Positions 8,236 through 55,688 of a stretch of DNA of 64,000 nt are shown here, piece by piece. The notes under the pieces are model-generated. The model ran no database searches and was not told the DNA's origin. It saw nothing but the letters and a program-made list of their open reading frames with translations. Origin of the DNA: Escherichia coli (GTDB taxonomy: Bacteria > Pseudomonadota > Gammaproteobacteria > Enterobacterales > Enterobacteriaceae); NCBI RefSeq assembly GCF_024700885.2, contig NZ_CP117016.1, one strand, 5' to 3'. Positions within the stretch are counted from its first letter, which is position 1, and every line of letters begins with the position of its first letter. Position numbers and translations under genes: made by a program.

Positions 8236-8236
8236 T

Positions 8237-9370: not shown

Positions 9371-9558
9371 ATCCAGTATTTGCACTTATTCTGACGGTTT
9401 TTCTTGTTTCCGGAGAGCCAGTTGATATTGCAGTCAGTGTTCACAGAACAATGCAGGAATGTATGGCAGCAGCAACCGAACAGAAAATTCCAGGCAACTG
9501 TTATCCGGTCGATAAAGTTATTCACCAGGATAATAACGAAATCCCGGCAGGATTTTAA
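9367..9558 (+). CDS. ydfD: YdfD-like small protein with N-terminal hydrophobic segment
   Basis: 63-aa ORF MNPVFALILTVFLVSGEPVDIAV...; ATGA overlap with dicB stop. Confidence 0.65.
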   Translation: MNPVFALILTVFLVSGEPVDIAVSVHRTMQECMAAATEQKIPGNCYPVDKVIHQDNNEIPAGF

Positions 9559-9651
9559 AACAGCACCGTAATAAATATCCAGTTTCATTCTTATATGTCA
9601 GCAATGGCAGAGATTTGTTCACCCTTAAATCTGTGATGAGGTTTATCAATA

Positions 9652-12093: not shown

Positions 12094-12151
12094 TGTTCAA
12101 CCCTGATCGCCGCTAACCGCATATAGTTAGCGGCGGTTATGAGATATAGCT

Positions 12152-12355
12152 ATGAGCAGCTTATTTTTAACCGAAGATGAATTGCTAATATTAACGGGCT
12201 GCAAATATGCAAGCCACCAGCGAAAATGGTTAATGGAAAACGGGCTTCCGTTCTATACCAATCGTAGTGGCAAACCGATTGTCAGCCGGGATCTATTTAC
12301 CTGCAATAAAACTTTACCACCACGCGAGGTAGAGCCGAATTTTGGTGCGATCTGA
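12152..12355 (+). CDS. xis: excisionase (Xis-like)
   Basis: 67-aa ORF immediately upstream of and overlapping (ATGA-type) the integrase start. Confidence 0.6.
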   Translation: MSSLFLTEDELLILTGCKYASHQRKWLMENGLPFYTNRSGKPIVSRDLFTCNKTLPPREVEPNFGAI

Positions 12356-13380: not shown

Positions 13381-13432
13381 TTCCAAGTGTGATTTTTGTC
13401 ACTGACTTAATGATGTATAAGTGATTGAATTT

Positions 13433-13522
13433 TGGCGGAGAGAGGGGGATTTGAACCCCCGGTAGAGTTGCCCCTACTCCGGTTTTCGAGACCGGTCCGT
13501 TCAGCCGCTCCGGCATCTCTCC
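13433..13522 (-). tRNA. serU: tRNA-Ser (anticodon CGA)
   Basis: Reverse complement reads GGAGAGATGCCGGAGCGGCTGAACGGACCGGTCTCGAAAACCGG...CTCTCTCCGCCA, a 90-nt class II tRNA with anticodon CGA and encoded CCA. Confidence 0.9.
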
Positions 13523-14466: not shown

Positions 14467-14495
14467 TTGACAGACAAGGTACCGCTAAGTAATAT
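14467..14495 (+). promoter_or_regulatory. sigma70 promoter of asnT (TTGACA-17bp-TAATAT, GC-rich discriminator)
   Basis: ttgaca at 14467-14472 and taatat at 14490-14495, followed by gcgcccc; the same architecture precedes all four tRNA-Asn copies. Confidence 0.55.
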
Positions 14496-14513: not shown

Positions 14514-14589
14514 TCCTCTGTAGTTCAGTCGGTAGAACGGCGGACTGTTAATCCGTATGTCACTGGTTCGAGTCCAGTCAGAGGAGCCA
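14514..14589 (+). tRNA. asnT: tRNA-Asn (GUU)
   Basis: 76-nt TCCTCTGTAGTTCAGTCGGTAGAACGGCGGACTGTTAATCCGTATGTCACTGGTTCGAGTCCAGTCAGAGGAGCCA; its 3' end is the HPI attachment site. Confidence 0.95.
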
Positions 14590-38900: not shown

Positions 38901-39406
38901 AAGGCGAGCAGGTTCGGATGGTGTTAATCGATCCCGTGTGCCGACAGGATTTCTGTTGCGAAAACCGGGCGGCCCTGCTGCGCCTGTTAGCCGAAGGACA
39001 AACGCCTCTGGCACTGCCCGAACATTTCGACCAGCAGACGCCCGACAGCCAGCTTGCCGACTTTATTAGCCTCGCTAAAACGGCCGGTATGGTGTCGCAA
39101 AACCTGACGCTGCAAGCGGCAGAAACGTGGCTCGACAACATCGCGCATCTGCTGCGTTTACTGACTGAGCATACGCCGGGCGAAAGCGTTCCGGTCCCCT
39201 GTCTCATGGTGTATGCCGCCGGGAGACCCGCGCACTGGACGCCAGCAGAAACCGAGTGGCAGGGCTGGATAAACAACGCCGACGACGCTGTGATTGAAGC
39301 CAGCCACTGGCAAATCATGATGGAAGCCCCCCACGTTCAGGCTTGTGCGCAACACATTACGCGCTGGCTTTGCGCAACCTCAACGCAACCGGAGAACACG
39401 TTATGA
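29915..39406 (+). CDS. irp1: yersiniabactin PKS/NRPS hybrid HMWP1 (KS-AT-MT-KR-ACP-Cy-MT-PCP-TE)
   Basis: 3163-aa ORF; KS active site TACSSSLVA, AT GHSVGE, SAM motifs ILEVGGGTGG and ILEVGAGTAA, KR GAFGGLGR, ACP LGMDSLL, Cy DLLQFDVQS, PCP GGDSLMATRM, TE GWSYGA. Confidence 0.95.
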   Translation: MDNLRFSSAPTADSIDASIAQHYPDCEPVAVIGYACHFPESPDGETFWQNLLEGRECSRRFTREELLAVGLDAAIIDDPHYVNIGTVLDNADCFDATLFGYSRQEAESMDPQQRLFLQAVWHALEHAGYAPGAVPHKTGVFASSRMSTYPGREALNVTEVAQVKGLQSLMGNDKDYIATRAAYKLNLHGPALSVQTACSSSLVAVHLACESLRAGESDMAVAGGVALSFPQQAGYRYQPGMIFSPDGHCRPFDASAEGTWAGNGLGCVVLRRLKDALLSGDPIISVILSSAVNNDGNRKVGYTAPSVAGQQAVIEEALMLAAIDDRQVGYIETHGTGTPLGDAIEIEALRNVYAPRPQDRRCALGSVKSNMGHLDTAAGIAGLLKTVLAVSRGQIPPLLNFHTPNPALKLEESPFTVPVSAQAWQDEMRYAGVSSFGIGGTNCHMIVASLPDALNARLPNTDGGRKSTALLLSAASDSALRRLATDYAGALRKNADASDLAFTALHARRLDLPFRLAVPLNRETADALSTWASEKSGAQVYSGHGASGKQVWLFTGQGSHWRTMGQTMYQHSTAFADTLDRCFSACSEMLTPSLREAMFNPDSAQLDNMAWAQPAIVAFEIAMAAHWRAEGLKPDFAIGHSVGEFAAAVVCGHYTIEQVMPLVCRRGALMQQCASGAMVAVFADEDTLMPLARQFELDLAANNGTQHTVFSGPEARLAVFCATLSQHDINYRRLSVTGAAHSALLEPILDRFLDTCAGLHAEPGQIPIISTLTADVIDESTLNQADYWRRHMRQPVRFIQSIQVAHQLGARVFLEMGPDAQLVACGQREYRDNAYWIASARRNKEASDVLNQALLQLYAAGVALPWADLLAGDGQRIAAPCYPFDTERYWKERVSPACEPADAALSAGLEVASRAATALDLPRLEALKQCATRLHAIYVDQLVQRCTGDAIENGVDAMTIMRRGRLLPRYQQLLQRLLNNCVVDGDYRCTDGRYVRARPIEHQQRESLLTELAGYCEGFQAIPDTIARAGDRLYEMMSGAEEPVAIIFPQSASDGVEVLYQEFSFGRYFNQIAAGVLRGIVQTRQPRQPLRILEVGGGTGGTTAWLLPELNGVPALEYHFTDISALFTRRAQQKFADYDFVKYSELDLEKEAQSQGFQAQSYDLIVAANVIHATRHIGRTLDNLRPLLKPGGRLLMREITQPMRLFDFVFGPLVLPLQDLDAREGELFLTTAQWQQQCRHAGFSKVAWLPQDGSPNAGMSEHIILATLPGQAVSAVTFTAPSEPVLGQALTDNGDYLADWSDCAGQPEQFNARWQEAWRLLSQRHGDALPVEPPPVAAPEWLGKVRLSWQNEAFSRGQMRVEARHPAGEWLPLSPAAPLPAPQTHYQWRWTPLNVASIDHPLTFSFSAGTLARSDELAQYDIIHDPHASSRLMIVEESEDTLALAEKVIAALTASAAGLIVVTRRAWRVEENEALSASHHALWALLRVAANEQPERLLAAIDLAENTPWETLHQGLSAVSLSQRWLAARGDTLWLPSLSPNTGCAAELPANVFTGDSRWHLVTGAFGGLGRLAVNWLREKGARRIALLAPRVDESWLRDVEGGQTRVCRCDVGDAGQLATVLDDLAANGGIAGAIHAAGVLADAPLQELDDHQLAAVFAVKAQAASQLLQTLRNHDGRYLILYSSAAATLGAPGQSAHALACGYLDGLAQQFSTLDAPKTLSVAWGAWGESGRAATPEMLATLASRGMGALSDAEGCWHLEQAVMRGAPWRLAMRVFTDKMPPLQQALFNISATEKAATPVIPPADDNAFNGSLSDETAVMAWLKKRIAVQLRLSDPASLHPNQDLLQLGMDSLLFLELSSDIQHYLGVRINAERAWQDLSPHGLTQLICSKPEATPAASQPEVLRHDADERYAPFPLTPIQHAYWLGRTHLIGYGGVACHVLFEWDKRHDEFDLAILEKAWNQLIARHDMLRMVVDADGQQRILATTPEYHIPRDDLRALSPEEQRIALEKRRHELSYRVLPADQWPLFELVVSEIDDCHYRLHMNLDLLQFDVQSFKVMMDDLAQVWRGETLAPLAITFRDYVMAEQARRQTSAWHDAWDYWQEKLPQLPLAPELPVVETPPETPHFTTFKSTIGKTEWQAVKQRWQQQGVTPSAALLTLFAATLERWSRTTTFTLNLTFFNRQPIHPQINQLIGDFTSVTLVDFNFSAPVTLQEQMQQTQQRLWQNMAHSEMNGVEVIRELGRLRGSQRQPLMPVVFTSMLGMTLEGMTIDQAMSHLFGEPCYVFTQTPQVWLDHQVMESDGELMFSWYCMDNVLEPGAAEAMFNDYCAILQAVIAAPESLKTLASGIARHIPRRRWPLNAQADYDLRDIEQATLEYPGIRQARAEITEQGALTLDIVMADDPSPSAAMPDEHELTQLALPLPEQAQLDELEATWRWLEARALQGIAATLNRHGLFTTPEIAHRFSAIVQALSSQASHQRLLRQWLQCLTEREWLIREGESWRCRIPLSEIPEPQEACPQSQWSQALAQYLETCIARHDALFSGQCSPLELLFNEQHRVTDALYRDNPASTCLNRYTAQIAALCSAERILEVGAGTAATTAPVLKATRNTRQSYHFTDVSAQFLNDARARFHDESQVSYALFDINQPLDFTAHPEAGYDLIVAVNVLHDASHVVQTLRRLKLLLKAGGRLLIVEATERNSVFQLASVGFIEGLSGYRDFRRRDEKPMLTRSAWQEVLVQAGFANELAWPAQESSPLRQHLLVARSPGVNRPDKKAVSRYLQQRFGTGLPILQIRQREALFTPLHAPSDAPTEPAKPTPVAGGNPALEKQVAELWQSLLSRPVARHHDFFELGGDSLMATRMVAQLNRRGIARANLQDLFSHSTLSDFCAHLQAATSGEDNPIPLCQGDGEETLFVFHASDGDISAWLPLASALNRRVFGLQAKSPQRLATLDQMIDEYVGCIRRQQPHGPYVLAGWSYGAFLAAGAAQRLYAKGEQVRMVLIDPVCRQDFCCENRAALLRLLAEGQTPLALPEHFDQQTPDSQLADFISLAKTAGMVSQNLTLQAAETWLDNIAHLLRLLTEHTPGESVPVPCLMVYAAGRPAHWTPAETEWQGWINNADDAVIEASHWQIMMEAPHVQACAQHITRWLCATSTQPENTL

Positions 39407-40503
39407 TGCCGTCCGCCTCCCCAAAACAACGCGTACTGATTGTGGGCGCCAAATTTGGCGAAATGTACCTGAATGCCTTTATGCAGCCCCCGGAGGGGCT
39501 GGAACTGGTCGGCCTGCTGGCGCAGGGAAGCGCCCGTTCAAGAGAGCTGGCTCATGCGTTTGGCATTCCGCTGTATACCTCGCCGGAACAGATAACCAGG
39601 ATGCCGGATATCGCCTGTATTGTCGTGCGTTCGACCGTCGCCGGAGGAACCGGTACGCAGCTTGCCAGACACTTTCTGACGCGCGGCGTACACGTCATTC
39701 AGGAGCATCCCCTCCACCCGGATGACATCAGTTCCTTACAAACGCTGGCGCAGGAACAGGGCTGCTGCTATTGGGTAAACACGTTTTATCCGCATACGCG
39801 CGCGGGACGCACATGGCTTCGCGATGCGCAGCAGCTGCGTCGCTGTCTGGCTAAGACGCCGCAGGTGGTCCACGCCACCACCAGCCGACAGTTGCTCTAC
39901 TCCACTCTGGATTTGTTGTTGCTGGCTCTGGGCGTTGATGCCGTCGCCGTGGAGTGCGACGTGGTTGGCAGCTTTAGCGATTTTCACTGTCTGAGACTCT
40001 TCTGGCCGGAGGGAGAAGCCTGCCTGCTGCTTCAGCGCTATCTCGATCCTGACGATCCAGATATGCATAGCCTTATCATGCACCGCCTGCTGCTGGGCTG
40101 GCCGGAAGGTCATCTTTCGCTGGAGGCGAGCTACGGCCCCGTCATCTGGTCATCCAGCCTGTTTGTCGCAGACCATCAGGAGAACGCCCACAGCCTCTAC
40201 CGCAGACCGGAGATCCTGCGCGATCTGCCGGGTCTGACGCGCAGCGCGGCGCCCCTGAGCTGGCGCGACTGCTGCGAAACCGTCGGGCCGGAGGGCGTCA
40301 GCTGGTTGCTACACCAGTTGCGCAGCCATCTGGCGGGCGAACATCCACCAGCGGCCTGCCAAAGCGTACATCAGATCGCGTTATCACGTTTATGGCAGCA
40401 GATTTTACGTAAGACCGGCAATGCGGAGATCAGACGCCTGACGCCGCCGCACCACGACCGGTTAGCCGGTTTCTACAACGATGATGATAAGGAGGCGCTG
40501 TGA
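39403..40503 (+). CDS. ybtU: thiazolinyl reductase YbtU (Irp3)
   Basis: About 366 aa from Met overlapping the irp1 stop (ttATGATG); N-terminal NAD(P)-binding-like VLIVGAKFGEMY. Confidence 0.85.
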   Translation: MMPSASPKQRVLIVGAKFGEMYLNAFMQPPEGLELVGLLAQGSARSRELAHAFGIPLYTSPEQITRMPDIACIVVRSTVAGGTGTQLARHFLTRGVHVIQEHPLHPDDISSLQTLAQEQGCCYWVNTFYPHTRAGRTWLRDAQQLRRCLAKTPQVVHATTSRQLLYSTLDLLLLALGVDAVAVECDVVGSFSDFHCLRLFWPEGEACLLLQRYLDPDDPDMHSLIMHRLLLGWPEGHLSLEASYGPVIWSSSLFVADHQENAHSLYRRPEILRDLPGLTRSAAPLSWRDCCETVGPEGVSWLLHQLRSHLAGEHPPAACQSVHQIALSRLWQQILRKTGNAEIRRLTPPHHDRLAGFYNDDDKEAL

Positions 40504-41303
40504 CGCAATCTGCAATGTGCATACCGCTGTGGCCCGCCCGGAACGGCAATACTGCGCATCTGGTCATGTGCCCTTTCGCTGGCGGCAGCAGTAGCGCGTT
40601 TCGCCACTGGCAAGCTGAGCAACTGGCTGATTGCGCGCTTTCTCTGGTGACCTGGCCGGGGCGCGATCGCCTTCGCCATCTGGAACCGCTCAGAAGCATT
40701 ACACAACTGGCGGCACTGCTGGCGAACGAGCTGGAAGCATCCGTATCGCCTGACACGCCGCTTTTACTCGCCGGGCACAGCATGGGGGCGCAGGTGGCGT
40801 TTGAAACCTGCCGACTTCTGGAGCAACGGGGGCTTGCGCCACAAGGACTGATTATTTCCGGGTGCCATGCCCCGCATCTGCATTCTGAACGCCAGCTCAG
40901 CCATCGCGATGATGCCGACTTTATCGCTGAGCTGATAGACATTGGCGGATGTTCTCCTGAACTGCGGGAAAACCAGGAATTAATGTCGCTGTTTCTTCCT
41001 CTTCTGCGCGCTGATTTTTACGCCACCGAGAGCTATCACTACGACTCGCCCGACGTCTGTCCGCCGCTGCGCACGCCTGCGCTGTTATTGTGCGGCAGCC
41101 ACGATCGCGAAGCCTCCTGGCAGCAGGTCGATGCCTGGCGTCAGTGGCTGAGCCACGTTACAGGCCCGGTGGTGATTGACGGCGATCATTTCTATCCCAT
41201 TCAACAAGCCCGGTCCTTTTTTACGCAGATTGTCCGCCATTTTCCCCACGCATTTTCTGCAATGACCGCGTTGCAAAAACAGCCCAGTACTTCAGAAAGG
41301 TGA
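40500..41303 (+). CDS. ybtT: type II thioesterase YbtT (Irp4)
   Basis: 267-aa ORF with GxSxG nucleophile GHSMGAQVAFE; GTG start overlapping the ybtU stop (GTGA). Confidence 0.88.
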   Translation: MTQSAMCIPLWPARNGNTAHLVMCPFAGGSSSAFRHWQAEQLADCALSLVTWPGRDRLRHLEPLRSITQLAALLANELEASVSPDTPLLLAGHSMGAQVAFETCRLLEQRGLAPQGLIISGCHAPHLHSERQLSHRDDADFIAELIDIGGCSPELRENQELMSLFLPLLRADFYATESYHYDSPDVCPPLRTPALLLCGSHDREASWQQVDAWRQWLSHVTGPVVIDGDHFYPIQQARSFFTQIVRHFPHAFSAMTALQKQPSTSER

Positions 41304-41306
41304 CGC

Positions 41307-42884
41307 ATGAATTCTTCCTTTGAATCTCTGATTGAACAGTATCCCTTACCCATTGCCGAACAGTTGCACCACTGGGCGGCCCGTTATGCCTCGCGAATTG
41401 CCGTCGTTGATGCAAAGGGGTCGTTAACCTACAGCGCGCTTGATGCACAAGTTGACGAACTTGCCGCAGGTCTGTCATCACTGGGTTTGCGTTCGGGGGA
41501 GCATGTAATTGTGCAGCTTCCCAACGACAATGCGTTTGTTACCCTGCTGTTCGCCTTGTTAAGACTGGGCGTTATCCCCGTGCTGGCGATGCCCTCGCAA
41601 CGGGCGCTGGATATCGACGCGCTGATTGAGCTGGCGCAACCCGTCGCTTACGTTATTCACGGGGAAAACCACGCAGAGCTGGCCCGACAGATGGCGCACA
41701 AACACGCCTGCTTGCGTCATGTTCTGGTCGCTGGAGAGACCGTGAGCGACGATTTTACGCCGCTCTTCTCCCTTCACGGTGAGCGACAGGCATGGCCGCA
41801 GCCTGATGTTTCCGCCACCGCGTTGTTGTTGCTCTCAGGCGGCACAACCGGCACGCCCAAACTCATCCCGCGCCGACATGCCGACTATAGCTATAACTTC
41901 AGCGCTTCTGCTGAACTGTGCGGCATCAGCCAACAGAGCGTGTATCTCGCCGTCCTCCCGGTGGCGCATAACTTTCCGCTGGCCTGCCCCGGTATTCTGG
42001 GAACGCTTGCCTGCGGCGGAAAAGTGGTGCTGACCGACAGCGCCAGCTGTGATGAGGTGATGCCTTTAATCGCGCAGGAAAGAGTGACTCACGTCGCCCT
42101 GGTTCCGGCGCTGGCGCAATTATGGGTGCAGGCCAGGGAGTGGGAAGACAGCGACCTTTCGTCGCTGCGCGTCATTCAGGCAGGCGGCGCCCGGCTCGAC
42201 CCGACGCTTGCTGAGCAGGTTATCGCCACCTTTGACTGTACCCTGCAACAGGTTTTCGGTATGGCGGAAGGCCTGCTCTGTTTTACCCGGCTGGACGATC
42301 CGCATGCCACCATTCTCCACAGCCAGGGGCGCCCGTTGTCCCCTCTGGATGAAATCCGCATCGTTGATCAAGACGAGAACGACGTCGCGCCGGGCGAAAC
42401 CGGGCAATTGTTAACGCGCGGCCCTTATACCATTTCGGGCTATTACCGCGCCCCTGCCCACAACGCGCAGGCCTTTACCGCGCAAGGGTTTTACCGCACA
42501 GGCGACAATGTCAGGCTGGATGAGGTGGGGAACCTGCACGTTGAGGGACGCATAAAAGAGCAGATCAACCGCGCCGGAGAAAAAATAGCCGCGGCTGAAG
42601 TGGAATCGGCACTGCTGCGTTTAGCGGAAGTGCAAGATTGCGCGGTGGTCGCCGCGCCGGACACGCTGCTTGGCGAGCGGATTTGCGCGTTTATCATCGC
42701 GCAGCAGGTGCCAACTGACTATCAGCAGTTGCGTCAACAACTGACCCGTATGGGGCTCAGCGCGTGGAAAATTCCTGACCAAATCGAGTTTCTGGACCAC
42801 TGGCCGCTCACCGCCGTCGGCAAGATAGACAAAAAACGCCTGACGGCTCTCGCCGTCGACCGTTATCGCCATTCTGCCCAATAA
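41307..42884 (+). CDS. ybtE: salicyl-AMP ligase YbtE (Irp5)
   Basis: 525-aa stand-alone adenylation enzyme; core motif SGGTTGTPKLIPRRH and C-terminal GKIDKKRL. Confidence 0.92.
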   Translation: MNSSFESLIEQYPLPIAEQLHHWAARYASRIAVVDAKGSLTYSALDAQVDELAAGLSSLGLRSGEHVIVQLPNDNAFVTLLFALLRLGVIPVLAMPSQRALDIDALIELAQPVAYVIHGENHAELARQMAHKHACLRHVLVAGETVSDDFTPLFSLHGERQAWPQPDVSATALLLLSGGTTGTPKLIPRRHADYSYNFSASAELCGISQQSVYLAVLPVAHNFPLACPGILGTLACGGKVVLTDSASCDEVMPLIAQERVTHVALVPALAQLWVQAREWEDSDLSSLRVIQAGGARLDPTLAEQVIATFDCTLQQVFGMAEGLLCFTRLDDPHATILHSQGRPLSPLDEIRIVDQDENDVAPGETGQLLTRGPYTISGYYRAPAHNAQAFTAQGFYRTGDNVRLDEVGNLHVEGRIKEQINRAGEKIAAAEVESALLRLAEVQDCAVVAAPDTLLGERICAFIIAQQVPTDYQQLRQQLTRMGLSAWKIPDQIEFLDHWPLTAVGKIDKKRLTALAVDRYRHSAQ

Positions 42885-42894
42885 GCGCAAACCG

Positions 42895-42964
42895 ACCCGA
42901 AACAGGTTGAAATAAACCCGTTTCGGGTAGCACTACTATTAGAAATAGTTATCATTTTCAATTC
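42895..42964 (+). promoter_or_regulatory. fyuA promoter: RS palindrome (YbtA site) plus Fur box
   Basis: acccgaaacaggttgaaataaacccgtttcgggtagca (42895-42932) and ttagaaatagttatcattttcaattc (42939-42964) with Fur-consensus-like core. Confidence 0.55.
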
Positions 42965-43014
42965 ACCATTGTCGGTATTTTTGGCGTTTCGCCGTCTTAC
43001 AGGGACTCACAACA

Positions 43015-45036
43015 ATGAAAATGACACGGCTTTATCCTCTGGCCTTGGGGGGATTATTGCTCCCCGCCATTGCTAATGCCCAGACTTCACAGCAAGACGA
43101 AAGCACGCTGGTGGTTACCGCCAGTAAACAATCTTCCCGCTCGGCATCAGCCAACAACGTCTCGTCTACTGTTGTCAGCGCGCCGGAATTAAGCGACGCC
43201 GGCGTCACCGCCAGCGACAAACTCCCCAGAGTCTTGCCCGGGCTCAATATTGAAAATAGCGGCAACATGCTTTTTTCGACGATCTCGCTACGCGGCGTCT
43301 CTTCAGCGCAGGACTTCTATAACCCCGCCGTCACCCTGTATGTCGATGGCGTCCCTCAGCTTTCCACCAACACCATCCAGGCGCTTACCGATGTGCAAAG
43401 CGTGGAGTTGCTGCGAGGCCCACAGGGAACGTTATATGGCAAAAGCGCTCAGGGCGGGATCATCAACATCGTCACCCAGCAGCCGGACAGCACGCCGCGC
43501 GGCTATATTGAAGGCGGCGTCAGTAGCCGCGACAGTTATCGAAGTAAGTTCAACCTGAGCGGCCCCATTCAGGATGGCCTGCTGTACGGCAGCGTCACCC
43601 TGTTACGCCAGGTTGATGACGGCGACATGATTAACCCCGCGACGGGAAGCGATGACTTAGGCGGCACCCGCGCCAGCATAGGGAATGTGAAACTGCGTCT
43701 GGCGCCGGACGATCAGCCCTGGGAAATGGGCTTTGCCGCCTCACGCGAATGTACCCGCGCCACCCAGGACGCCTATGTGGGATGGAATGATATTAAGGGC
43801 CGTAAGCTGTCGATCAGCGATGGTTCACCAGACCCGTACATGCGGCGCTGCACTGACAGCCAGACCCTGAGTGGGAAATACACCACCGATGACTGGGTTT
43901 TCAACCTGATCAGCGCCTGGCAGCAGCAGCATTATTCGCGCACCTTCCCTTCCGGTTCGTTAATCGTCAATATGCCTCAGCGCTGGAATCAGGATGTGCA
44001 GGAGCTGCGCGCCGCAACCCTGGGCGATGCGCGTACCGTTGATATGGTGTTTGGGCTGTACCGGCAGAACACCCGCGAGAAGTTAAATTCAGCCTACGAC
44101 ATGCCGACAATGCCTTATTTAAGCAGTACCGGCTATACCACCGCTGAAACGCTGGCCGCATACAGTGACCTGACCTGGCATTTAACCGATCGTTTTGATA
44201 TCGGCGGCGGCGTGCGCTTCTCGCATGATAAATCCAGTACACAATATCACGGCAGCATGCTCGGCAACCCGTTTGGCGACCAGGGTAAGAGCAATGACGA
44301 TCAGGTGCTCGGGCAGCTATCCGCAGGCTATATGCTGACCGATGACTGGAGAGTGTATACCCGTGTAGCCCAGGGATATAAACCTTCCGGGTACAACATC
44401 GTGCCTACTGCGGGTCTTGATGCCAAACCGTTCGTCGCCGAGAAATCCATCAACTATGAACTTGGCACCCGCTACGAAACCGCTGACGTCACGCTGCAAG
44501 CCGCGACGTTTTATACCCACACCAAAGACATGCAGCTTTACTCTGGCCCGGTCGGGATGCAGACATTAAGCAATGCGGGTAAAGCCGACGCCACCGGCGT
44601 TGAGCTTGAAGCGAAGTGGCGGTTTGCGCCAGGCTGGTCATGGGATATCAATGGCAACGTGATCCGTTCCGAATTCACCAATGACAGTGAGTTGTATCAC
44701 GGTAACCGGGTGCCGTTCGTACCACGTTATGGCGCGGGAAGCAGCGTGAACGGCGTGATTGATACGCGCTATGGCGCACTGATGCCCCGACTGGCGGTTA
44801 ATCTGGTCGGGCCGCATTATTTCGATGGCGACAACCAGTTGCGGCAAGGCACCTATGCCACCCTGGACAGCAGCCTGGGCTGGCAGGCGACTGAACGGAT
44901 GAACATTTCCGTCTATGTCGATAACCTGTTCGACCGTCGTTACCGTACCTATGGCTACATGAACGGCAGCAGCGCCGTCGCGCAGGTCAATATGGGTCGC
45001 ACCGTCGGTATCAATACGCGAATTGATTTCTTCTGA
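43015..45036 (+). CDS. fyuA: TonB-dependent yersiniabactin/pesticin outer-membrane receptor FyuA (Psn)
   Basis: 673-aa ORF with N-terminal signal peptide, plug and beta-barrel pattern, C-terminal aromatic residue (...NTRIDFF). Confidence 0.92.
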   Translation: MKMTRLYPLALGGLLLPAIANAQTSQQDESTLVVTASKQSSRSASANNVSSTVVSAPELSDAGVTASDKLPRVLPGLNIENSGNMLFSTISLRGVSSAQDFYNPAVTLYVDGVPQLSTNTIQALTDVQSVELLRGPQGTLYGKSAQGGIINIVTQQPDSTPRGYIEGGVSSRDSYRSKFNLSGPIQDGLLYGSVTLLRQVDDGDMINPATGSDDLGGTRASIGNVKLRLAPDDQPWEMGFAASRECTRATQDAYVGWNDIKGRKLSISDGSPDPYMRRCTDSQTLSGKYTTDDWVFNLISAWQQQHYSRTFPSGSLIVNMPQRWNQDVQELRAATLGDARTVDMVFGLYRQNTREKLNSAYDMPTMPYLSSTGYTTAETLAAYSDLTWHLTDRFDIGGGVRFSHDKSSTQYHGSMLGNPFGDQGKSNDDQVLGQLSAGYMLTDDWRVYTRVAQGYKPSGYNIVPTAGLDAKPFVAEKSINYELGTRYETADVTLQAATFYTHTKDMQLYSGPVGMQTLSNAGKADATGVELEAKWRFAPGWSWDINGNVIRSEFTNDSELYHGNRVPFVPRYGAGSSVNGVIDTRYGALMPRLAVNLVGPHYFDGDNQLRQGTYATLDSSLGWQATERMNISVYVDNLFDRRYRTYGYMNGSSAVAQVNMGRTVGINTRIDFF

Positions 45037-45044
45037 TTATTGTA

Positions 45045-45074
45045 AAAGGGATACCGAAAAGGTATCCCTTTTAC
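45045..45074 (+). terminator. hairpin terminator downstream of fyuA
   Basis: aaaagggatacc-gaaaa-ggtatcccttttac, 9 bp after the fyuA stop; the 3' T-tract is short. Confidence 0.45.
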
Positions 45075-45606
45075 ACCACTAGTTAAAACCAGTAACTCAG
45101 CAGAGTCGCAAAAAATATTAATCCATAGTGATTATTTAAACAATGAAATTGCGATTAGGATAAATAGATTTAACTTTCTCGTTCCTTTCTCTCCTTATAC
45201 TAAAGAAATAATCATATCAAAATAAAAATTCACAACAGTGCAACATTAAAAAATACAACCAACAAACAATCCTATATACAAGGCACATCTCCAGAATATA
45301 AAAGCACAGACAAACAACCTAAAAAAAACAACCCCATACATATAAATTATTTTATAGGTAAAATAGATTATATATTCTCATAGCTACCACAAACTATACT
45401 AGCCTGAACTATATTTATTCTGCTGCAATCAATGCATACATAACACAAATATCACTCAGGTACACTACTCAAACCACGCTGGGATTTTTCCTCAAGTTAT
45501 AATCATCACCCCGAAAATCATTCGGCATTTACTCATTAAATAGTCACCCCAGGTGATGCTGCCAACTTACTGATTTAGTGTATGATGGTGTTTTTGAGGT
45601 GCTCCA

Positions 45607-45882
45607 GTGGCTTCTGTTTCTATCAGCTGTCCCTCCTGTTCAGCTACTGACGGGGTGGTGCGTAACGGCAAAAGCACCGCCGGACATCAGCGCTATCTCT
45701 GCTCTCACTGCCGTAAAACATGGCAACTGCAGTTCACTTACACCGCTTCTCAACCCGGTACGCACCAGAAAATCATTGATATGGCCATGAATGGCGTTGG
45801 ATGCCGGGCAACTGCCCGCATTATGGGCGTTGGCCTCAACACGATTTTACGTCACTTAAAAAACTCAGGCCGCAGTCGGTAA
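45607..45882 (+). CDS. insA: IS1 InsA
   Basis: 91-aa product [24 protein letters not shown]... (GTG start), the zinc-finger InsA. Confidence 0.88.
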
Positions 45883-46304
45883 CCTCGCGCATACAGCCGG
45901 GCAGTGACGTCATCGTCTGCGCGGAAATGGACGAACAGTGGGGCTATGTCGGGGCTAAATCGCGCCAGCGCTGGCTGTTTTACGCGTATGACAGGCTCCG
46001 GAAGACGGTTGTTGCGCACGTATTCGGTGAACGCACTATGGCGACGCTGGGGCGTCTTATGAGCCTGCTGTCACCCTTTGACGTGGTGATATGGATGACG
46101 GATGGCTGGCCGCTGTATGAATCCCGCCTGAAGGGAAAGCTGCACGTAATCAGCAAGCGATATACGCAGCGAATTGAGCGGCATAACCTGAATCTGAGGC
46201 AGCACCTGGCACGGCTGGGACGGAAGTCGCTGTCGTTCTCAAAATCGGTGGAGCTGCATGACAAAGTCATCGGGCATTATCTGAACATAAAACACTATCA
46301 ATAA
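45801..46304 (+). CDS. insB: IS1 InsB reading frame (expressed as InsAB' by -1 frameshift)
   Basis: 167-aa ORF overlapping the insA 3' end in the -1 frame. Confidence 0.8.
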
Positions 46305-46319
46305 GTTGGAGTCATTACC

Positions 46320-46708
46320 CCGTATTGCAGTGTTATATTCTTCGCTAAATCTTTTATTTCTTTTAATGTTGCGTGATCCTGCATAGTCATTGTGACTAAT
46401 GTTAATTTAGTCTGTTCAAGTTTGAGCGCATTAAAGACTTCTAAATTAATTGTCGACGTAACAATTAATAGATGCTTAATTTTATGCAATTCAAGCGCCC
46501 GAATAACAGGAAAGATGGCCATAGCATCGCCAATCTGATCGGGAATATGTATGACAACAAAGTCTGTTTTTTCAATATTAAAATTATAAGCTTTATAATC
46601 GTAGTAACTAAATGCAATACGTCTCAACAATGATACTAAAAACATAACTAACCTCGCCTCCCTACTGGTTATAATGCAATGCAGTCTATCAGAATCATCA
46701 GGGTGCAA
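46320..46708 (-). pseudogene. yeeL: 5' fragment of a glycosyltransferase-family-9-like gene (yeeL-like), truncated by IS1
   Basis: ORF ...LVMFLVSLLRRIAFSYYDYKAYNFNIEKTDFVVIHIPDQIGDAMAIFPVIRALEL... resembles the N-terminus of heptosyltransferase-type GT9 proteins; its reading frame runs into the IS1 end at 46319. Confidence 0.5.
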
Positions 46709-46959
46709 TTTTGTGCATATGCGGACTTTTATGTTTCATATCTCGAACCTGTGGGCCATCTGCTTAATCCTTAAACAACACCAGCAACTCCTGCGCTTTC
46801 ATCTTCCATCGAATTTTTCATGTTGCCGCTAATCAGCCATAAAATCATTTGCAGATGCGCTCTGTCGAGGTAGTCTCATAAGGTTCGTTTATAGATCGAC
46901 GGCAATGTGAGTTACCTTTTCCATACTAATTATAAAAAGACAGTACAAACAGGATCATT

Positions 46960-48276
46960 ATGGACTCCACGCTCATCTCCACTCGTCCCGATGAAGGGAC
47001 GCTTTCGTTAAGTCGCGCCCGACGAGCTGCGTTAGGCAGTTTCGCTGGTGCCGTCGTCGACTGGTATGATTTTTTACTCTATGGCATTACCGCCGCACTG
47101 GTGTTTAATCGCGAGTTTTTCCCGCAAGTAAGCCCGGCGATGGGAACGCTCGCCGCATTTGCCACCTTTGGTGTCGGCTTCCTTTTCCGACCGCTCGGCG
47201 GTGTCATTTTCGGTCACTTTGGTGACCGACTGGGACGTAAGCGCATGTTAATGCTGACCGTCTGGATGATGGGCATCGCGACAGCCTTGATTGGTATTCT
47301 TCCTTCATTCTCGACCATTGGGTGGTGGGCACCTATTTTGCTGGTGACACTGCGTGCCATTCAGGGATTTGCCGTCGGCGGCGAATGGGGAGGCGCAGCG
47401 TTGCTTTCCGTTGAAAGTGCGCCGAAAAATAAAAAAGCCTTTTACAGTAGCGGTGTACAAGTTGGCTACGGAGTAGGTTTACTGCTTTCAACCGGACTGG
47501 TTTCATTGATCAGTATGATGACGACTGACGTACAGTTTTTAAGCTGGGGCTGGCGCATTCCTTTCCTGTTTAGCATCGTACTGGTACTGGGAGCATTGTG
47601 GGTGCGCAATGGCATGGAGGAGTCCGCGGAATTTGAACAACAGCAACATAATCAAGCGGCCGCGAAAAAACGCATCCCGGTTATCGAAGCTCTGTTACGA
47701 CATCCCGGTGCTTTCCTGAAGATTATTGCGCTACGACTGTGCGAGTTGCTGACGATGTACATCGTTACCGCCTTTGCACTTAATTATTCAACCCAGAATA
47801 TGGGGTTACCGCGCGAACTTTTCCTTAATATTGGTTTGCTGGTAGGTGGATTAAGCTGCCTGACAATTCCCTGTTTTGCCTGGCTTGCCGATCGTTTTGG
47901 TCGCCGCAGGTTTTATATCACAGGTGCGTTAATCGGAATGTTGAGCGCATTTCCTTTCTTTATGGCGCTTGAAGCACAATCTATTTTCTGGATAGTTTTC
48001 TTCTCCATAATGCTGGCAAACATTGCGCATGACATGGTGGTGTGTGTGCAACAACCGATGTTTACCGAAATGTTTGGTGCCAGTTATCGCTATAGTGGCG
48101 CTGGAGTCGGTTATCAGGTTGCCAGTGTGGTTGGTGGTGGATTTACACCTTTTATTGCCGCTGCACTCATCACTTACTTTGCCGGGAACTGGCATAGCGT
48201 CGCCATTTATTTGCTGGCTGGATGCCTGATTTCCGCAATAACCGCTTTGTTGATGAAAGACAATCAACGCGCTTGA
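46960..48276 (+). CDS. shiA: shikimate/dehydroshikimate MFS transporter ShiA
   Basis: 438-aa MFS ORF with sugar-transporter motifs (GHFGDRLGRKR); conserved position before amn. Confidence 0.88.
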   Translation: MDSTLISTRPDEGTLSLSRARRAALGSFAGAVVDWYDFLLYGITAALVFNREFFPQVSPAMGTLAAFATFGVGFLFRPLGGVIFGHFGDRLGRKRMLMLTVWMMGIATALIGILPSFSTIGWWAPILLVTLRAIQGFAVGGEWGGAALLSVESAPKNKKAFYSSGVQVGYGVGLLLSTGLVSLISMMTTDVQFLSWGWRIPFLFSIVLVLGALWVRNGMEESAEFEQQQHNQAAAKKRIPVIEALLRHPGAFLKIIALRLCELLTMYIVTAFALNYSTQNMGLPRELFLNIGLLVGGLSCLTIPCFAWLADRFGRRRFYITGALIGMLSAFPFFMALEAQSIFWIVFFSIMLANIAHDMVVCVQQPMFTEMFGASYRYSGAGVGYQVASVVGGGFTPFIAAALITYFAGNWHSVAIYLLAGCLISAITALLMKDNQRA

Positions 48277-48377
48277 TAGCCTGGCGAAGATCATCCGATC
48301 TTCGCCTTACACTTTTGTTTCACATTCCTGTGACATACTATCGGATGTGCGGTAATTGTATGGAACAGGAGACACAC

Positions 48378-49832
48378 ATGAATAATAAGGGCTCCGGTCT
48401 GACCCCAGCTCAGGCACTGGATAAACTCGACGCGCTGTATGAGCAATCTGTAGTTGCTTTACGCAACGCCATTGGCAACTATATTACAAGTGGCGAATTA
48501 CCTGATGAAAACGCCCGCAAACAAGGTCTTTTTGTCTATCCATCACTGACCGTAACTTGGGATGGTAGCACAACCAATCCCCCTAAAACGCGCGCATTTG
48601 GTCGTTTTACTCACGCAGGCAGCTACACCACCACGATTACTCGCCCTACTCTCTTTCGTTCGTATCTCAATGAACAACTTACGTTGCTGTATCAGGATTA
48701 TGGTGCGCATATCTCGGTGCAACCCTCGCAGCATGAAATCCCTTATCCTTATGTCATTGATGGCTCTGAATTGACACTTGATCGCTCAATGAGCGCTGGG
48801 TTAACTCGCTATTTCCCGACAACAGAACTGGCGCAAATTGGCGATGAAACTGCAGACGGCATTTATCATCCAACTGAATTCTCCCCGCTATCGCATTTTG
48901 ATGCGCGCCGCGTCGATTTTTCCCTCGCGCGGTTGCGCCATTATACCGGTACGCCAGTTGAACATTTTCAGCCGTTCGTCTTGTTTACCAACTACACACG
49001 TTATGTGGATGAATTCGTTCGTTGGGGATGCAGCCAGATCCTCGATCCTGATAGTCCCTACATTGCCCTTTCTTGTGCTGGCGGGAACTGGATCACCGCC
49101 GAAACCGAAGCGCCAGAAGAAGCCATTTCCGACCTTGCATGGAAAAAACACCAGATGCCCGCGTGGCATTTAATTACCGCCGATGGTCAGGGTATTACTC
49201 TGGTGAATATTGGCGTGGGACCGTCAAATGCTAAAACCATCTGCGATCATCTGGCAGTACTACGCCCGGATGTCTGGTTGATGATTGGTCACTGTGGTGG
49301 CTTACGTGAAAGCCAGGCCATTGGCGATTATGTACTTGCACATGCTTATTTACGCGATGATCACGTTCTTGATGCGGTTCTGCCGCCCGATATTCCTATT
49401 CCAAGCATTGCTGAAGTGCAACGTGCGCTTTATGACGCTACCAAGTTAGTCAGCGGCAGGCCCGGTGAGGAAGTCAAACAGCGGCTGCGTACAGGTACTG
49501 TGGTAACCACAGATGACAGGAACTGGGAATTACGTTACTCAGCTTCTGCACTTCGTTTTAACTTAAGCCGGGCCGTGGCAATTGATATGGAAAGTGCAAC
49601 CATTGCCGCGCAAGGATATCGTTTCCGCGTGCCATACGGGACACTACTGTGTGTTTCAGATAAACCGTTGCATGGCGAGATTAAACTTCCCGGCCAGGCT
49701 AACCGTTTTTATGAAGGCGCTATTTCCGAACACCTGCAAATTGGCATTCGGGCGATCGATTTGCTGCGCGCAGAAGGCGACCGACTGCATTCACGTAAAT
49801 TACGAACCTTTAATGAGCCGCCGTTCCGATAA
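48378..49832 (+). CDS. amn: AMP nucleosidase
   Basis: 484 aa from Met MNNKGSGLTPAQALDKL...; the supplied ORF begins at an upstream in-frame Met that I consider unused. Confidence 0.88.
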   Translation: MNNKGSGLTPAQALDKLDALYEQSVVALRNAIGNYITSGELPDENARKQGLFVYPSLTVTWDGSTTNPPKTRAFGRFTHAGSYTTTITRPTLFRSYLNEQLTLLYQDYGAHISVQPSQHEIPYPYVIDGSELTLDRSMSAGLTRYFPTTELAQIGDETADGIYHPTEFSPLSHFDARRVDFSLARLRHYTGTPVEHFQPFVLFTNYTRYVDEFVRWGCSQILDPDSPYIALSCAGGNWITAETEAPEEAISDLAWKKHQMPAWHLITADGQGITLVNIGVGPSNAKTICDHLAVLRPDVWLMIGHCGGLRESQAIGDYVLAHAYLRDDHVLDAVLPPDIPIPSIAEVQRALYDATKLVSGRPGEEVKQRLRTGTVVTTDDRNWELRYSASALRFNLSRAVAIDMESATIAAQGYRFRVPYGTLLCVSDKPLHGEIKLPGQANRFYEGAISEHLQIGIRAIDLLRAEGDRLHSRKLRTFNEPPFR

Positions 49833-50174
49833 TAAGTTATGAACCTTCTTATCAGAAATAGATGTGAAGGATTAAGTAAGACATCTGGCAAATAGCCTGC
49901 AATAAACGCGGGCTGTTTGCTTCCTTGGGCAGATGCGAGTTTTATTATCGTCTTAATGATTTCCACATATTAAAAGCAAGTATGCTTTCAAAACACAATT
50001 ATAAAAAATCCCGCCAACAACATTAGTTTTTATAAAATTAAATATAAGATTATGGCTTTAGAATATTTTTATTTCTAATAGACGAGATTTTTCCTGTTAT
50101 GATATAATATGCTGAATTAACACATGTTAACGATTTACCAGTAATGTAAATAAATTTTCGAGGAGATCATTCCA

Positions 50175-50891
50175 GTGGGACGTAAATGGGCCAATATTGT
50201 TGCTAAAAAAACGGCTAAAGACGGTGCAACGTCTAAAATTTATGCAAAATTCGGTGTAGAAATCTATGCTGCTGCCAAACAAGGTGAACCCGATCCAGAA
50301 TTAAACACATCTTTAAAATTCGTTATTGAACGTGCAAAGCAGGCACAAGTTCCAAAGCACGTTATTGATAAAGCAATTGATAAAGCCAAAGGCGGTGGAG
50401 ATGAAACGTTCGTACAGGGACGTTATGAAGGCTTTGGTCCTAATGGCTCAATGATTATTGCTGAGACATTGACTTCAAATGTTAACCGTACGATTGCTAA
50501 CGTTCGCACAATTTTCAATAAAAAAGGCGGCAATATCGGAGCGGCAGGTTCTGTCAGCTATATGTTTGACAATACGGGTGTGATTGTATTTAAAGGAACA
50601 GACCCTGACCATATTTTTGAAATTTTGCTTGAAGCTGAAGTTGATGTTCGTGATGTAACTGAAGAAGAAGGTAATATTGTTATTTATACTGAACCTACTG
50701 ACCTTCATAAAGGAATCGCGGCGCTAAAAGCAGCTGGAATCACTGAGTTCTCAACAACAGAATTAGAAATGATTGCTCAATCTGAAGTTGAGCTTTCCCC
50801 AGAAGATTTAGAAATCTTTGAAGGGCTTGTTGATGCCCTTGAAGATGACGACGATGTACAAAAAGTTTATCATAACGTCGCAAATCTCTAA
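50175..50891 (+). CDS. yeeN: YebC/PmpR-family transcriptional regulator YeeN
   Basis: 238-aa ORF (GTG start) [17 protein letters not shown]..., typical YebC-family N-terminus. Confidence 0.88.
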
Positions 50892-51345
50892 TTATATGTT
50901 AAAGAAATCTGTCTTTATGGCAGATTTCTTTAATCTCATATAATCCTTATAAAAATATAATGTTTAACTCGTCATATTGCTTATAAAAAATCCCCGTTCC
51001 CAGAGAAATAATATTTATTAAAATGGCAGGTCTTCTTTTTCTGATTACCGAAGACAAAGTGGCAATTACGTATAGTTTCCCGATAAAGACGCGACAGCTA
51101 CATCCCGCATAAGGCATTTTTCTCTTTATCTTTGTACGGTACTTCATGGAACAGAATTTTTGACCTTGTGAATCGTGATGTCTGTTGGGGAGGAGCAATT
51201 TGCTCACTGAAGCGTGAGACTCGATTAAGCGCACGAAACACAGAAATCAAAAAACCCGGCCACTTTTTTACAAACTGACCGGGTAAAAATAATTTTTATT
51301 TTTTAACTGCCTTGAGACTCATAGAGATGTCTCAAAACTAAAATT

Positions 51346-51421
51346 TGGCTCCTCTGACTGGACTCGAACCAGTGACATACGGATTAACAGTCCGCCGTTC
51401 TACCAACTGAACTACAGAGGA
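51346..51421 (-). tRNA. asnW: tRNA-Asn (GUU), variant copy with one D-loop substitution
   Basis: Reverse complement is identical to the other three Asn tRNAs except AGTTGGTAG instead of AGTCGGTAG in the D-loop. Confidence 0.93.
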
Positions 51422-51439
51422 ATCGTGAGAACGAGGCGA

Positions 51440-51468
51440 ATATTAGCGATGCCCACCCACAATGTCAA
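51440..51468 (-). promoter_or_regulatory. sigma70 promoter of asnW
   Basis: On the minus strand TTGACA (51463-51468), 17-bp spacer, TAATAT (51440-51445), then GC-rich discriminator. Confidence 0.55.
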
Positions 51469-51521
51469 AGCCTGTTTTTTAAATTTGAAATCGTTTGCTG
51501 AAATAATCTGCATTTTGTTGT

Positions 51522-53009
51522 TTATTCCGACACAACTGGCTTTTTTTCACACTTTTGCGGTTCGGGTCGAGGGTATTTCCATAGCCAACGTCCAGTAACC
51601 ATTCGCCAGTAAAACAGCACGGCCCGCACAGCCCAGTCGGCAAACATTCCCATCCAGACACCAACCACACCCCAGCCAAGCATGATGCCCAGCACATAAC
51701 CGACGACAACCCGGCAACCCCACATGCTCAACATAGAAACCCACATAGCGTAACGGGCGTCACGAGCCCCCTTAAATCCAGCGGGTAGCACCCATGAGGC
51801 GGACCAAATAGGCATAAATAAAGCATTTAGCCAAATCAGAATCACAACGACATGTTTAACCTGTGGATCCTGGGTGTAAAACGATGCCATAACCCCGGCA
51901 AAGGGAGCCGTTAGCCAGGCGATGGCCGTTAATCCAAGAGTGGACAGCCAGAAGACATGCCGCAACTGAATCTCTGCTTGCGCTATCTGCCCTACCCCTA
52001 ACCTTCGGCCTGTAATGATCGTAGAAGCAGAGCCGAGCGCACTTCCGGGTAAGTTGATAAGAGCCGCAATTGAAAACGCGATAAAATTTCCGGCAATAAC
52101 ACTGGTCCCCATCCCGGCAACGAACATTTGGGTTAATAACCGACCACTGGTAAATAACACTGATTCGACACTCGCTGGAATACCAATCCCCATGACTTCC
52201 CAGATAATGCTAAAATTCAGCGGTTTAAAATAGCTCTTTAACGAAATCCTTAGCGCAGGATTAAAACCAATCGCCAGCACCCACAAAATTGCAACTGCGC
52301 CAATATAACGAGAAATGGTTAAACCCAACCCAGCCCCGACAAATCCCAGTCCCGGCCAGGAGAAAAGGCCGTAAATCAATATGCCGCTAATAATAATATT
52401 AAGAATATTCAGGCTACCGTTAATCAGTAGCGGTATTTTCGTATTCCCTGCACCACGAAGTGCCCCGCTACCAATCAAAGTGATGGCAGCTGCTGGATAA
52501 CTGAGTACCGTCAGCTCCAGATAAGTCAACGCCAGTGCTTTAACTTCTGTCGTGGCATCACCCGCGACGAAATCAATAATTTGCTCGCCAAAATGATGAA
52601 TAAGCGTTGCCAACAGTACGGCAAACAACGTCATGATCACCAATGACTGCCGCGTCGCCACCCTCGCTCGTCGTCGATCCCGCTTACCGAGACTAAATGC
52701 CACAACGACAGTAGTACCAAGATCGATAGCAGCAAAAAAAGCCATAATGACCATATTGAAGCTGTCCGCCAATCCCACGCCGGCCATCGCATCTTTTCCC
52801 AGCCAGCTGACCAGAAAAGTGCTCAGAACCCCCATCAACAGGACACAGGCATTCTCCATGAAGATAGGAACAGCAAGCGGGGTTATCTCGCGCCAGAACA
52901 ACACTTTGTAGCTCTTGCGTTTAGCGTGCCAGCGAGTGCCGTGAACAACCTGGCGTAAAGCAGAGGAGATATTCAAAGCCGACCTTAATTGCAGAAAGTG
53001 AAACCACAT
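51522..53009 (-). CDS. yeeO: MATE-family efflux transporter YeeO
   Basis: Polytopic membrane ORF; start set at Met MWFHFLQLRS... giving 495 aa; the 546-aa extended ORF would run into the asnU promoter region. Confidence 0.85.
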   Translation of the reverse strand: MWFHFLQLRSALNISSALRQVVHGTRWHAKRKSYKVLFWREITPLAVPIFMENACVLLMGVLSTFLVSWLGKDAMAGVGLADSFNMVIMAFFAAIDLGTTVVVAFSLGKRDRRRARVATRQSLVIMTLFAVLLATLIHHFGEQIIDFVAGDATTEVKALALTYLELTVLSYPAAAITLIGSGALRGAGNTKIPLLINGSLNILNIIISGILIYGLFSWPGLGFVGAGLGLTISRYIGAVAILWVLAIGFNPALRISLKSYFKPLNFSIIWEVMGIGIPASVESVLFTSGRLLTQMFVAGMGTSVIAGNFIAFSIAALINLPGSALGSASTIITGRRLGVGQIAQAEIQLRHVFWLSTLGLTAIAWLTAPFAGVMASFYTQDPQVKHVVVILIWLNALFMPIWSASWVLPAGFKGARDARYAMWVSMLSMWGCRVVVGYVLGIMLGWGVVGVWMGMFADWAVRAVLFYWRMVTGRWLWKYPRPEPQKCEKKPVVSE

Positions 53010-53125
53010 TTCAAATAATGAGGGAGAATCAGCAAAGCTGCAAAGATTTTCGCCAACAAATTGTCTGCAAATGCAACAAACTGTTGATAGAAACGGCAAA
53101 CAGTTGGGGAATTTAAAAATCGGGT

Positions 53126-53153
53126 TTGACAAAAGATTTTTCGCCGTTAAGAT
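53126..53153 (+). promoter_or_regulatory. sigma70 promoter of asnU
   Basis: ttgaca (53126-53131), 16-bp spacer, taagat (53148-53153), GC-rich discriminator before the tRNA. Confidence 0.55.
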
Positions 53154-53169
53154 GTGCCTCAACAGCGAT

Positions 53170-53245
53170 TCCTCTGTAGTTCAGTCGGTAGAACGGCGGA
53201 CTGTTAATCCGTATGTCACTGGTTCGAGTCCAGTCAGAGGAGCCA
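53170..53245 (+). tRNA. asnU: tRNA-Asn (GUU)
   Basis: 76-nt sequence identical to asnT. Confidence 0.95.
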
Positions 53246-53254
53246 AATTTCTGA

Positions 53255-53281
53255 AAAGCCCGCTTTTATAGCGGGCTTTTT
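53255..53281 (+). terminator. hairpin terminator after asnU (shared with convergent cbl)
   Basis: aaaagcccgc-ttttata-gcgggcttttt. Confidence 0.6.
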
Positions 53282-53282
53282 G

Positions 53283-54233
53283 CTATATCTGATAATCAAT
53301 TTCCTCTTCACTGTTTTCCATCACCTGGCGCTTGATATCCTCAACTGACAGTCCTGCATTACAAAGTTCCAGAAAGCGCCAGACATAGTTACGCTGAAGT
53401 TGTCCTCGCTTGAGTCCCAACCAGACAGTATTAGCATCGAAAAGATGCCGCGTATCCAGGCGGATTAAATTCTTTTCCTCTTGTTCACCGCTGGATTGTT
53501 CGGCAACTAATCCGATCCCAAGCCCAAGAGCAACATAGGTTTTAATGACATCAGAATCCTGCGCACTTAATACAATATCTGCCAGCAAACCTTTGCGGGC
53601 AAATGCGTCATCAATACGTGAGCGCCCCGTAATCCCCTGTCGGTAAGTGATTAACGGCCACTTCGCTATTGATTCCAGCGTCAATGGTGTAATTTGCGTC
53701 AAGGGATGATCGTGTGGAACAAGCAAACTATGGTGCCAACGAAACCACGGGAAGGCGACGAGCTGCGGGTCATTACTCAAACGCTCGCTGGCGATACCAA
53801 TATCAGCTTCGCCATTTTGCAACAACGTCGCAATTTCCTGTGGCGTACCCTGGATTAGCTCCAGCCGAACCTCCGGGAAAAGTTCGCGAAAAGCTTTAAT
53901 GACCTCAGGCAAGCTATAACGTGCCTGAGTATGCGTTGTTGCAATAGTGAGAACGCCAGACGTATCGTTGGTAAACAGGTCTGCAAGCCGACGAACATTA
54001 CTGGCTTCATTCAGAATACGTTCTGCAATGACCAGTAATGCTTTGCCCGGTTCAGTCATGCCCAGCAGTCGCTTACCTCGTCGAACAAATATTTCGATGC
54101 CAAGTTCATCCTCCAGTTCCCGAATATGACGGCTGACGCCGGACTGTGAGGTAAAAAGCATATTCGCAACCTCTGTCAGGTTGTAATCCTGACGTGCAGC
54201 CTCGCGGATTATCTTTAGTTGTTGGAAATTCAC
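53283..54233 (-). CDS. cbl: LysR-family regulator Cbl (cysteine regulon)
   Basis: 316-aa LysR-type ORF MNFQQLKIIREAARQDYNLTEVANMLFTSQSGVSRHIRELE...; nac-cbl pair between asnU and asnV. Confidence 0.85.
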   Translation of the reverse strand: MNFQQLKIIREAARQDYNLTEVANMLFTSQSGVSRHIRELEDELGIEIFVRRGKRLLGMTEPGKALLVIAERILNEASNVRRLADLFTNDTSGVLTIATTHTQARYSLPEVIKAFRELFPEVRLELIQGTPQEIATLLQNGEADIGIASERLSNDPQLVAFPWFRWHHSLLVPHDHPLTQITPLTLESIAKWPLITYRQGITGRSRIDDAFARKGLLADIVLSAQDSDVIKTYVALGLGIGLVAEQSSGEQEEKNLIRLDTRHLFDANTVWLGLKRGQLQRNYVWRFLELCNAGLSVEDIKRQVMENSEEEIDYQI

Positions 54234-55529: not shown

Positions 55530-55558
55530 TTTGACATCACCATGCACTGCCATTAATA
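55530..55558 (+). promoter_or_regulatory. sigma70 promoter of asnV
   Basis: ttgaca (55530-55535), 17-bp spacer, taatat (55553-55558), gcgcccc discriminator. Confidence 0.55.
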
Positions 55559-55577
55559 TGCGCCCCGTTCACACGAT

Positions 55578-55653
55578 TCCTCTGTAGTTCAGTCGGTAGA
55601 ACGGCGGACTGTTAATCCGTATGTCACTGGTTCGAGTCCAGTCAGAGGAGCCA
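55578..55653 (+). tRNA. asnV: tRNA-Asn (GUU)
   Basis: 76-nt sequence identical to asnT. Confidence 0.95.
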
Positions 55654-55659
55654 AATTCA

Positions 55660-55688
55660 AAAAAGCCTGCTTTCTAGCAGGCTTTTTG
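55660..55688 (+). terminator. hairpin terminator after asnV (shared with convergent ldtA)
   Basis: aaaaagcctgc-tttctag-caggctttttg. Confidence 0.6.

Follow-up and report, generated by a model that had tools for sequence, protein, structure and literature searches.

Four tRNA-Asn Genes, an Occupied asnT and a Rare asnW Allele in a Chromosomal Segment of Escherichia coli

Why does a segment of E. coli DNA with four nearly identical tRNA-Asn genes carry the high-pathogenicity (yersiniabactin) island, HPI, at only one of them, asnT, and what is to be made of the single base by which another, asnW, departs from the rest? The DNA analysed here (the window, 64,000 bp) is 100% identical over all its bases to E. 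coli MLI114 (NZ_CP117013.1; stool, Mali). The reading that we favor, with a probability of about 0.85, is that the four are paralogous single-gene tRNA-Asn(GUU) loci with the HPI locked at asnT, and that U at position 17 of the asnW product (U17; T17 in the gene) is recent and most likely neutral.

The tRNA-Asn Genes and Their Transcription Signals

The tRNA genes were called with ARAGORN and the Rfam model RF00005, and were named through the annotation of K-12 MG1655 and its collinear BLAST alignment. Within the 64-kb window ARAGORN returns four tRNA-Asn(GTT) genes and a tRNA-Ser gene (13433–13522, minus strand). The tRNA-Asn genes and the variant base are as follows, with the supporting evidence in brackets.

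14514–14589, plus strand: asnT, tRNA-Asn(GTT), canonical (C17), whose 3′ end forms the left HPI junction, attL (ARAGORN, alignment, Rfam, limit of K-12 homology)
51346–51421, minus strand: asnW, tRNA-Asn(GTT) with U17 replacing C17 (ARAGORN, alignment, Rfam)
51405, minus strand: variant base of asnW, A on the plus strand and T at tRNA position 17 (position 2102310 of the MLI114 record)
53170–53245, plus strand: asnU, tRNA-Asn(GTT), canonical, 3′ end unoccupied (ARAGORN, alignment, K-12 collinearity)
55578–55653, plus strand: asnV, tRNA-Asn(GTT), canonical, 3′ end unoccupied (ARAGORN, alignment, K-12 collinearity)

Each of the four, asnW included, scores 72.6 bits against RF00005, for which the gathering score is 29. 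ARAGORN places the anticodon gtt at position 34, and the alignment displays G73 and an encoded CCA end. A preliminary description of this DNA had claimed three identical tRNA-Asn genes plus one D-loop substitution in asnW and had suggested an alignment of the four loci. The alignment was run and bears the claim out: asnT, asnU and asnV are identical 76-mers, and the sole differing column is tRNA position 17, in the D-loop, where asnW has T for C (AGTTGGTAG in asnW, AGTCGGTAG elsewhere). The gene order serU, mtfA, asnT ... shiA, amn, yeeN, asnW and yeeO (both minus), asnU, cbl and nac (both minus), asnV, ldtA, cobTSU is common to the window and K-12 MG1655, and the names asnT, asnW, asnU and asnV are therefore correct. 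Among complete E. coli genomes, some have as many as 8 matches to tRNA-Asn; 13 of the matches are plasmid-borne, and the 5,969-bp plasmid NZ_CP196293.1 has two.

A promoter lies upstream of every copy.

14467–14495, plus strand: asnT promoter, TTGACA, 17-bp spacer, TAATAT, discriminator GCGCCCCG
51440–51468, minus strand: asnW promoter, TTGACA, 17-bp spacer, TAATAT, discriminator TCGCCTCG
53126–53153, plus strand: asnU promoter, TTGACA, 16-bp spacer, TAAGAT, discriminator GTGCCTCA
55531–55559, plus strand: asnV promoter, TTGACA, 17-bp spacer, TAATAT, discriminator GCGCCCCG

The distance from the start of the −35 element to the mature 5′ end is 47 nt for asnT, asnW and asnV and 44 nt for asnU. 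All four promoters match the consensus at 10 of 12 positions, and they are the only matches of this quality within the regions scanned. The layout described earlier, TTGACA with a 16- to 17-bp spacer and a GC-rich discriminator, is found at each gene; the −10 motif given with it, TA(A/T)(T/G)AT, has to be narrowed to TAA(T/G)AT, since every copy has A as its third base. Judged by this arrangement and by what is generally known of stable-RNA promoters, these would be strong sigma-70 promoters of the stable-RNA type, with a consensus −35 and a near-consensus −10, probably active and under stringent control. The 546-aa longest reading frame of yeeO (51522–53162, TTG start) comes to within 8 nt of asnU, which is on the other strand, and overlaps the promoter of asnU; the yeeO annotated by PGAP is shorter, 495 aa.

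Downstream of the genes, the following hairpins are predicted.

51249–51284, minus strand: terminator-like hairpin of −18.5 kcal/mol with a T-run, some 60 nt 3′ of asnW
51314–51333, minus strand: weaker asnW hairpin, upstream of the −18.5 kcal/mol hairpin
53254–53281, plus strand: asnU intrinsic terminator hairpin, −17.5 kcal/mol
55659–55687, plus strand: asnV intrinsic terminator hairpin, −17.2 kcal/mol

Strong hairpin and T-run terminators lie within about 8 nt 3′ of asnU and asnV, and island DNA lies directly 3′ of asnT.

The HPI at asnT and Its Right End

The island and the elements at its two ends are given below.

14591–45551, plus strand: HPI (MLI114 annotation, int translation, att search)
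14751–16013, plus strand: int, a P4-type integrase gene adjoining asnT, open across 420 codons
43015–45036: fyuA (MLI114 annotation)
45552–46319, plus strand: IS1A copy, which replaces the HPI right end, yeeJ and part of yeeL

The gene content, taken from the annotation of the MLI114 record, which is identical to the window, is int, ybtS, ybtX, ybtQ, ybtP, ybtA, irp2, irp1, ybtU, ybtT, ybtE and fyuA, in this order. Homology with K-12 ends at 14590, one base past asnT, and restarts at 46320 inside the yeeL pseudogene; from there to 59476 the window aligns to K-12 as one block with three small gaps. Owing to this collinearity, asnW, asnU and asnV are without insertion. In the window there are exactly four copies of the 17-bp att core CCAGTCAGAGGAGCCAA, one at each tRNA-Asn 3′ end, against 0.01 expected by chance. 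A search of the window with up to 2 mismatches returned no partial att sites at the HPI right end or at the empty asn genes. Since matches to the core are restricted to the four tRNA 3′ ends, the HPI is without a right-hand repeat. Three earlier claims stand on these data: that the HPI sits at asnT alone, that the flanks of asnW, asnU and asnV are clean, and that the tRNA-Asn genes share the 3′ end that serves the HPI as its attachment site.

Such an arrangement is in agreement with what has been reported. The HPI was found at asnT in every HPI-positive ECOR strain but ECOR31, and in the asnT HPI the border on the fyuA side is deleted and the direct repeat is gone (Schubert et al. 2009, PMC2606025). 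The E. coli HPI is fixed at asnT because the right repeat is lost (PMC2606025, PMC8209727), and it spreads together with its flanks via homologous recombination (PMC2606025; restated in PMC8209727). The pks island, on the other hand, keeps both repeats and uses asnW, asnU or asnV (Auvray et al. 2021, PMC8209727). The common 17 bp at which the four tRNA-Asn genes end is the target of P4-type integrases. We propose that the HPI integrated at asnT and afterwards lost its right-hand repeat, which would have locked it in place. The sequence that once followed asnT has been lost to the HPI, and asnW, asnU and asnV are attachment sites that are still empty.

The annotated, putative start of int is an ATA codon (14751–14753), and the first in-frame ATG is at 14970. 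A broken start peculiar to this strain, with ATA in place of ATG, was considered as a cause of the immobility of the HPI and rejected: a typical HPI strain also has ATA, its only difference being a SNP upstream, and ATA is the norm, since no ATG version of the 80-mer around this codon is found in the approximately 2,200 int-positive E. coli genomes.

At the other end of the island, the region altered by IS1A spans 45552–46645. The backbone junction downstream of fyuA, a shared "unique deletion", has been removed in the window by the IS1-associated deletion. Besides MLI114, only HSP60 matches the stretch fyuA–IS1–yeeL over at least 80% of its length. The right end of HSP60 has IS1 and a complete yeeL; that of B19695 has two IS1 copies, each followed by a fragment of yeeL; and that of MLI114 has a single IS1 and a truncated yeeL. 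Each of these three related strains shows another stage of the rearrangement by IS1 insertion and deletion. In the MLI114 lineage, IS1 would have removed further DNA of the HPI right end together with yeeJ and part of yeeL.

A lambdoid prophage remnant at 1–13400 (exonuclease, dicB, ydfA–D, hokD, rusA, antiterminator; integrase frameshifted) adjoins the serU tRNA-Ser gene, so that the window has an occupied tRNA site besides asnT. Beyond cobU, at 59470–64000, lie fragments of IS4, IS3 and ISL3 along with broken phosphotriesterase-related and gamma-glutamyltransferase genes; K-12 has the cryptic prophage CP4-44 in place of this cluster.

Occurrence, Origin and Likely Effect of the asnW Allele

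The T17 76-mer was searched for by exact match in 5,424 complete E. coli genomes, with approximately 21,700 tRNA-Asn copies, taking the best place per record. It is present in three genomes, MLI114, B19695 (Ireland) and Z142-3 (China), at asnW in all three, and the other tRNA-Asn copies of these genomes are without it. An 80-nt probe made of the asnW-specific promoter and the first 35 nt of the tRNA was matched exactly by 2 records in its T version and by 3,780 records in its C version. The nearest relative, HSP60 (Brazil), carries C, and position 51405 is the sole difference between it and the window across 37800–53960 (16 kb). B19695 also has T; it and the window differ by 0 SNPs over 46343–52090 and by 5 SNPs across the HPI. 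T17 is a derived, recent mutation within one clone, that of MLI114 and B19695; it is a private recent variant and not a general property of asnW. The flanks in Z142-3 are only 98.07% identical, the first differences lying some 30 bp away from the gene in each direction, and its T probably had a second, independent origin. That T17 travels with the flank of the HPI was also considered and rejected, for an HPI-type int region is present in approximately 2,200 genomes and T17 in just 3.

What the base change would do to the tRNA can be approached from its structure and from other species. The cloverleaf energy is −23.3 kcal/mol for the C17 and T17 alleles alike; on this ground, and on that of the equal Rfam scores, a disturbance of folding by T17 was rejected. 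Nearest-neighbour folding of C17 gives a non-cloverleaf alternative of −24.5 kcal/mol against −23.3 for the cloverleaf, and for T17 the cloverleaf is the minimum-energy fold; this difference is probably meaningless in vivo. Asparaginyl-tRNA synthetase recognizes the anticodon and G73; position 17 is not among its known identity elements. In a survey with one genome per bacterial species, Vibrio, Shewanella, Photobacterium, Aliivibrio and Salinivibrio usually have, in several copies, a U17 tRNA-Asn whose D and anticodon arms are identical to those of the asnW product. The exact T17 76-mer of asnW is also present in Yersinia aldovae, Rosenbergiella gaditana and Ca. Gullanella. Because DusB makes dihydrouridine at position 17 in E. 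coli (PMC5814906), the U17 of asnW may be reduced to dihydrouridine by this enzyme. The change from C17 to U is a recent point mutation at a non-conserved D-loop position in one of four redundant genes, and a U17 tRNA-Asn should fold, be charged and decode normally. The allele is most likely neutral or nearly neutral.

Readings other than recent, neutral mutation are to be weighed against these data. In favor of a sequencing or assembly error in the window record, just one base of one copy is concerned, the repeat family has four copies, and the nearest relative HSP60 has C; such an error had been named as the finding that would overturn the asnW variant. The variant withstands it: the same T is carried by B19695, which comes from another country, was assembled independently and shares the local haplotype, and at asnW by the unrelated Z142-3, so that T17 is not an assembly error, and the T is absent from the other tRNA-Asn copies of the carrier genomes. 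We hold this the least probable of the readings considered. The T17 may instead have been imported, through recombination or gene conversion, from a species or strain in which U17 is normal. The identical 76-mer does exist in other Enterobacterales, and movement of the HPI region from strain to strain along with its flanks is established (PMC2606025), but the flanks here are identical to those of the C17-carrying HSP60 over 16 kb except for the one base, and in Z142-3 the flank differences begin about 30 bp on either side, so that an imported tract would need to be shorter than about 130 bp. The comparison of the window with HSP60 and B19695 suggests a single C-to-T step without linked changes, and import appears very improbable.

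The recurrence at asnW deserves separate consideration. T17 has two apparently independent origins, each at asnW, which could be a sign of selection or of a hotspot for mutation; in that case U17 would give a functionally distinct tRNA-Asn, for example with an extra dihydrouridine, and some advantage. U17 is preferred in several other Gammaproteobacteria and would be a substrate of DusB (PMC5814906). Against this, T17 is found in 3 of 5,424 genomes and a spread is not evident; position 17 is scored equally by the tRNA model, and the known synthetase identity elements lie elsewhere. Two events would also fall on the same locus of four by chance with a probability of 1 in 4 (25%). A selected or hotspot variant is thus, in our estimate, very unlikely. 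In a more specific form of the idea, the recurrent change from C17 to U at asnW would create a second form of tRNA-Asn, possibly with D17, having a small selectable effect, or would mark a hotspot of transcription-associated deamination in a highly expressed tRNA gene; to this version we give slightly less credence. That T17 is so extremely rare (3 of approximately 21,700 copies of the gene) is also compatible with weak purifying selection against the allele. Recent mutation with little or no effect remains the preferred explanation.

It is already established that E. coli has a cluster of four tRNA-Asn genes, that this cluster is a hotspot for the integration of islands and that the HPI is fixed at asnT. 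The only new item is the rare, probably neutral single-base allele of asnW, and its importance is small. It could serve as a marker of one E. coli clone, MLI114 and B19695. Its rarity also illustrates how strictly the identity of the four copies is kept, with approximately 3 such deviations per 21,700 copies.

Comparison with Known asn Loci and Islands

The asnT, asnW, asnU and asnV genes of K-12 (b1977, b1984, b1986 and b1989) have the same order, orientation and neighbors as those of the window, the common neighbors being mtfA, yeeN, yeeO, cbl, nac and ldtA. The 76-mer of asnT, asnU and asnV in K-12 is identical to that of the window, and the asnW promoter is the same, too. The window differs from K-12 in that its asnW has U17 instead of C17 and in that the HPI lies 3′ of asnT, where K-12 has yeeJ. 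In Vibrio, Shewanella, Yersinia aldovae and Rosenbergiella, U17 is the norm of the species, whereas in E. coli it is a rare allele of a single copy.

The common E. coli-type HPI (PMC2606025), like that of the window, is at asnT, has a P4-like integrase beside the tRNA gene and the full ybt/irp/fyuA content, and is without the right-hand direct repeat. The two differ at the right end: the window has IS1 about 515 bp past fyuA, with the usual junction, yeeJ and part of yeeL removed, whereas Rb-3, a typical HPI-positive strain, has yeeJ and an intact yeeL downstream of fyuA. The islands of asn genes that are still mobile, namely pks (at asnW, asnU or asnV), the ICE-type HPI of ECOR31 (at asnV) and the HPI of Y. 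pseudotuberculosis (at any asn copy), target the same shared tRNA-Asn 3′ end (PMC8209727, PMC2606025); none of them is in the window, where asnW, asnU and asnV are empty.
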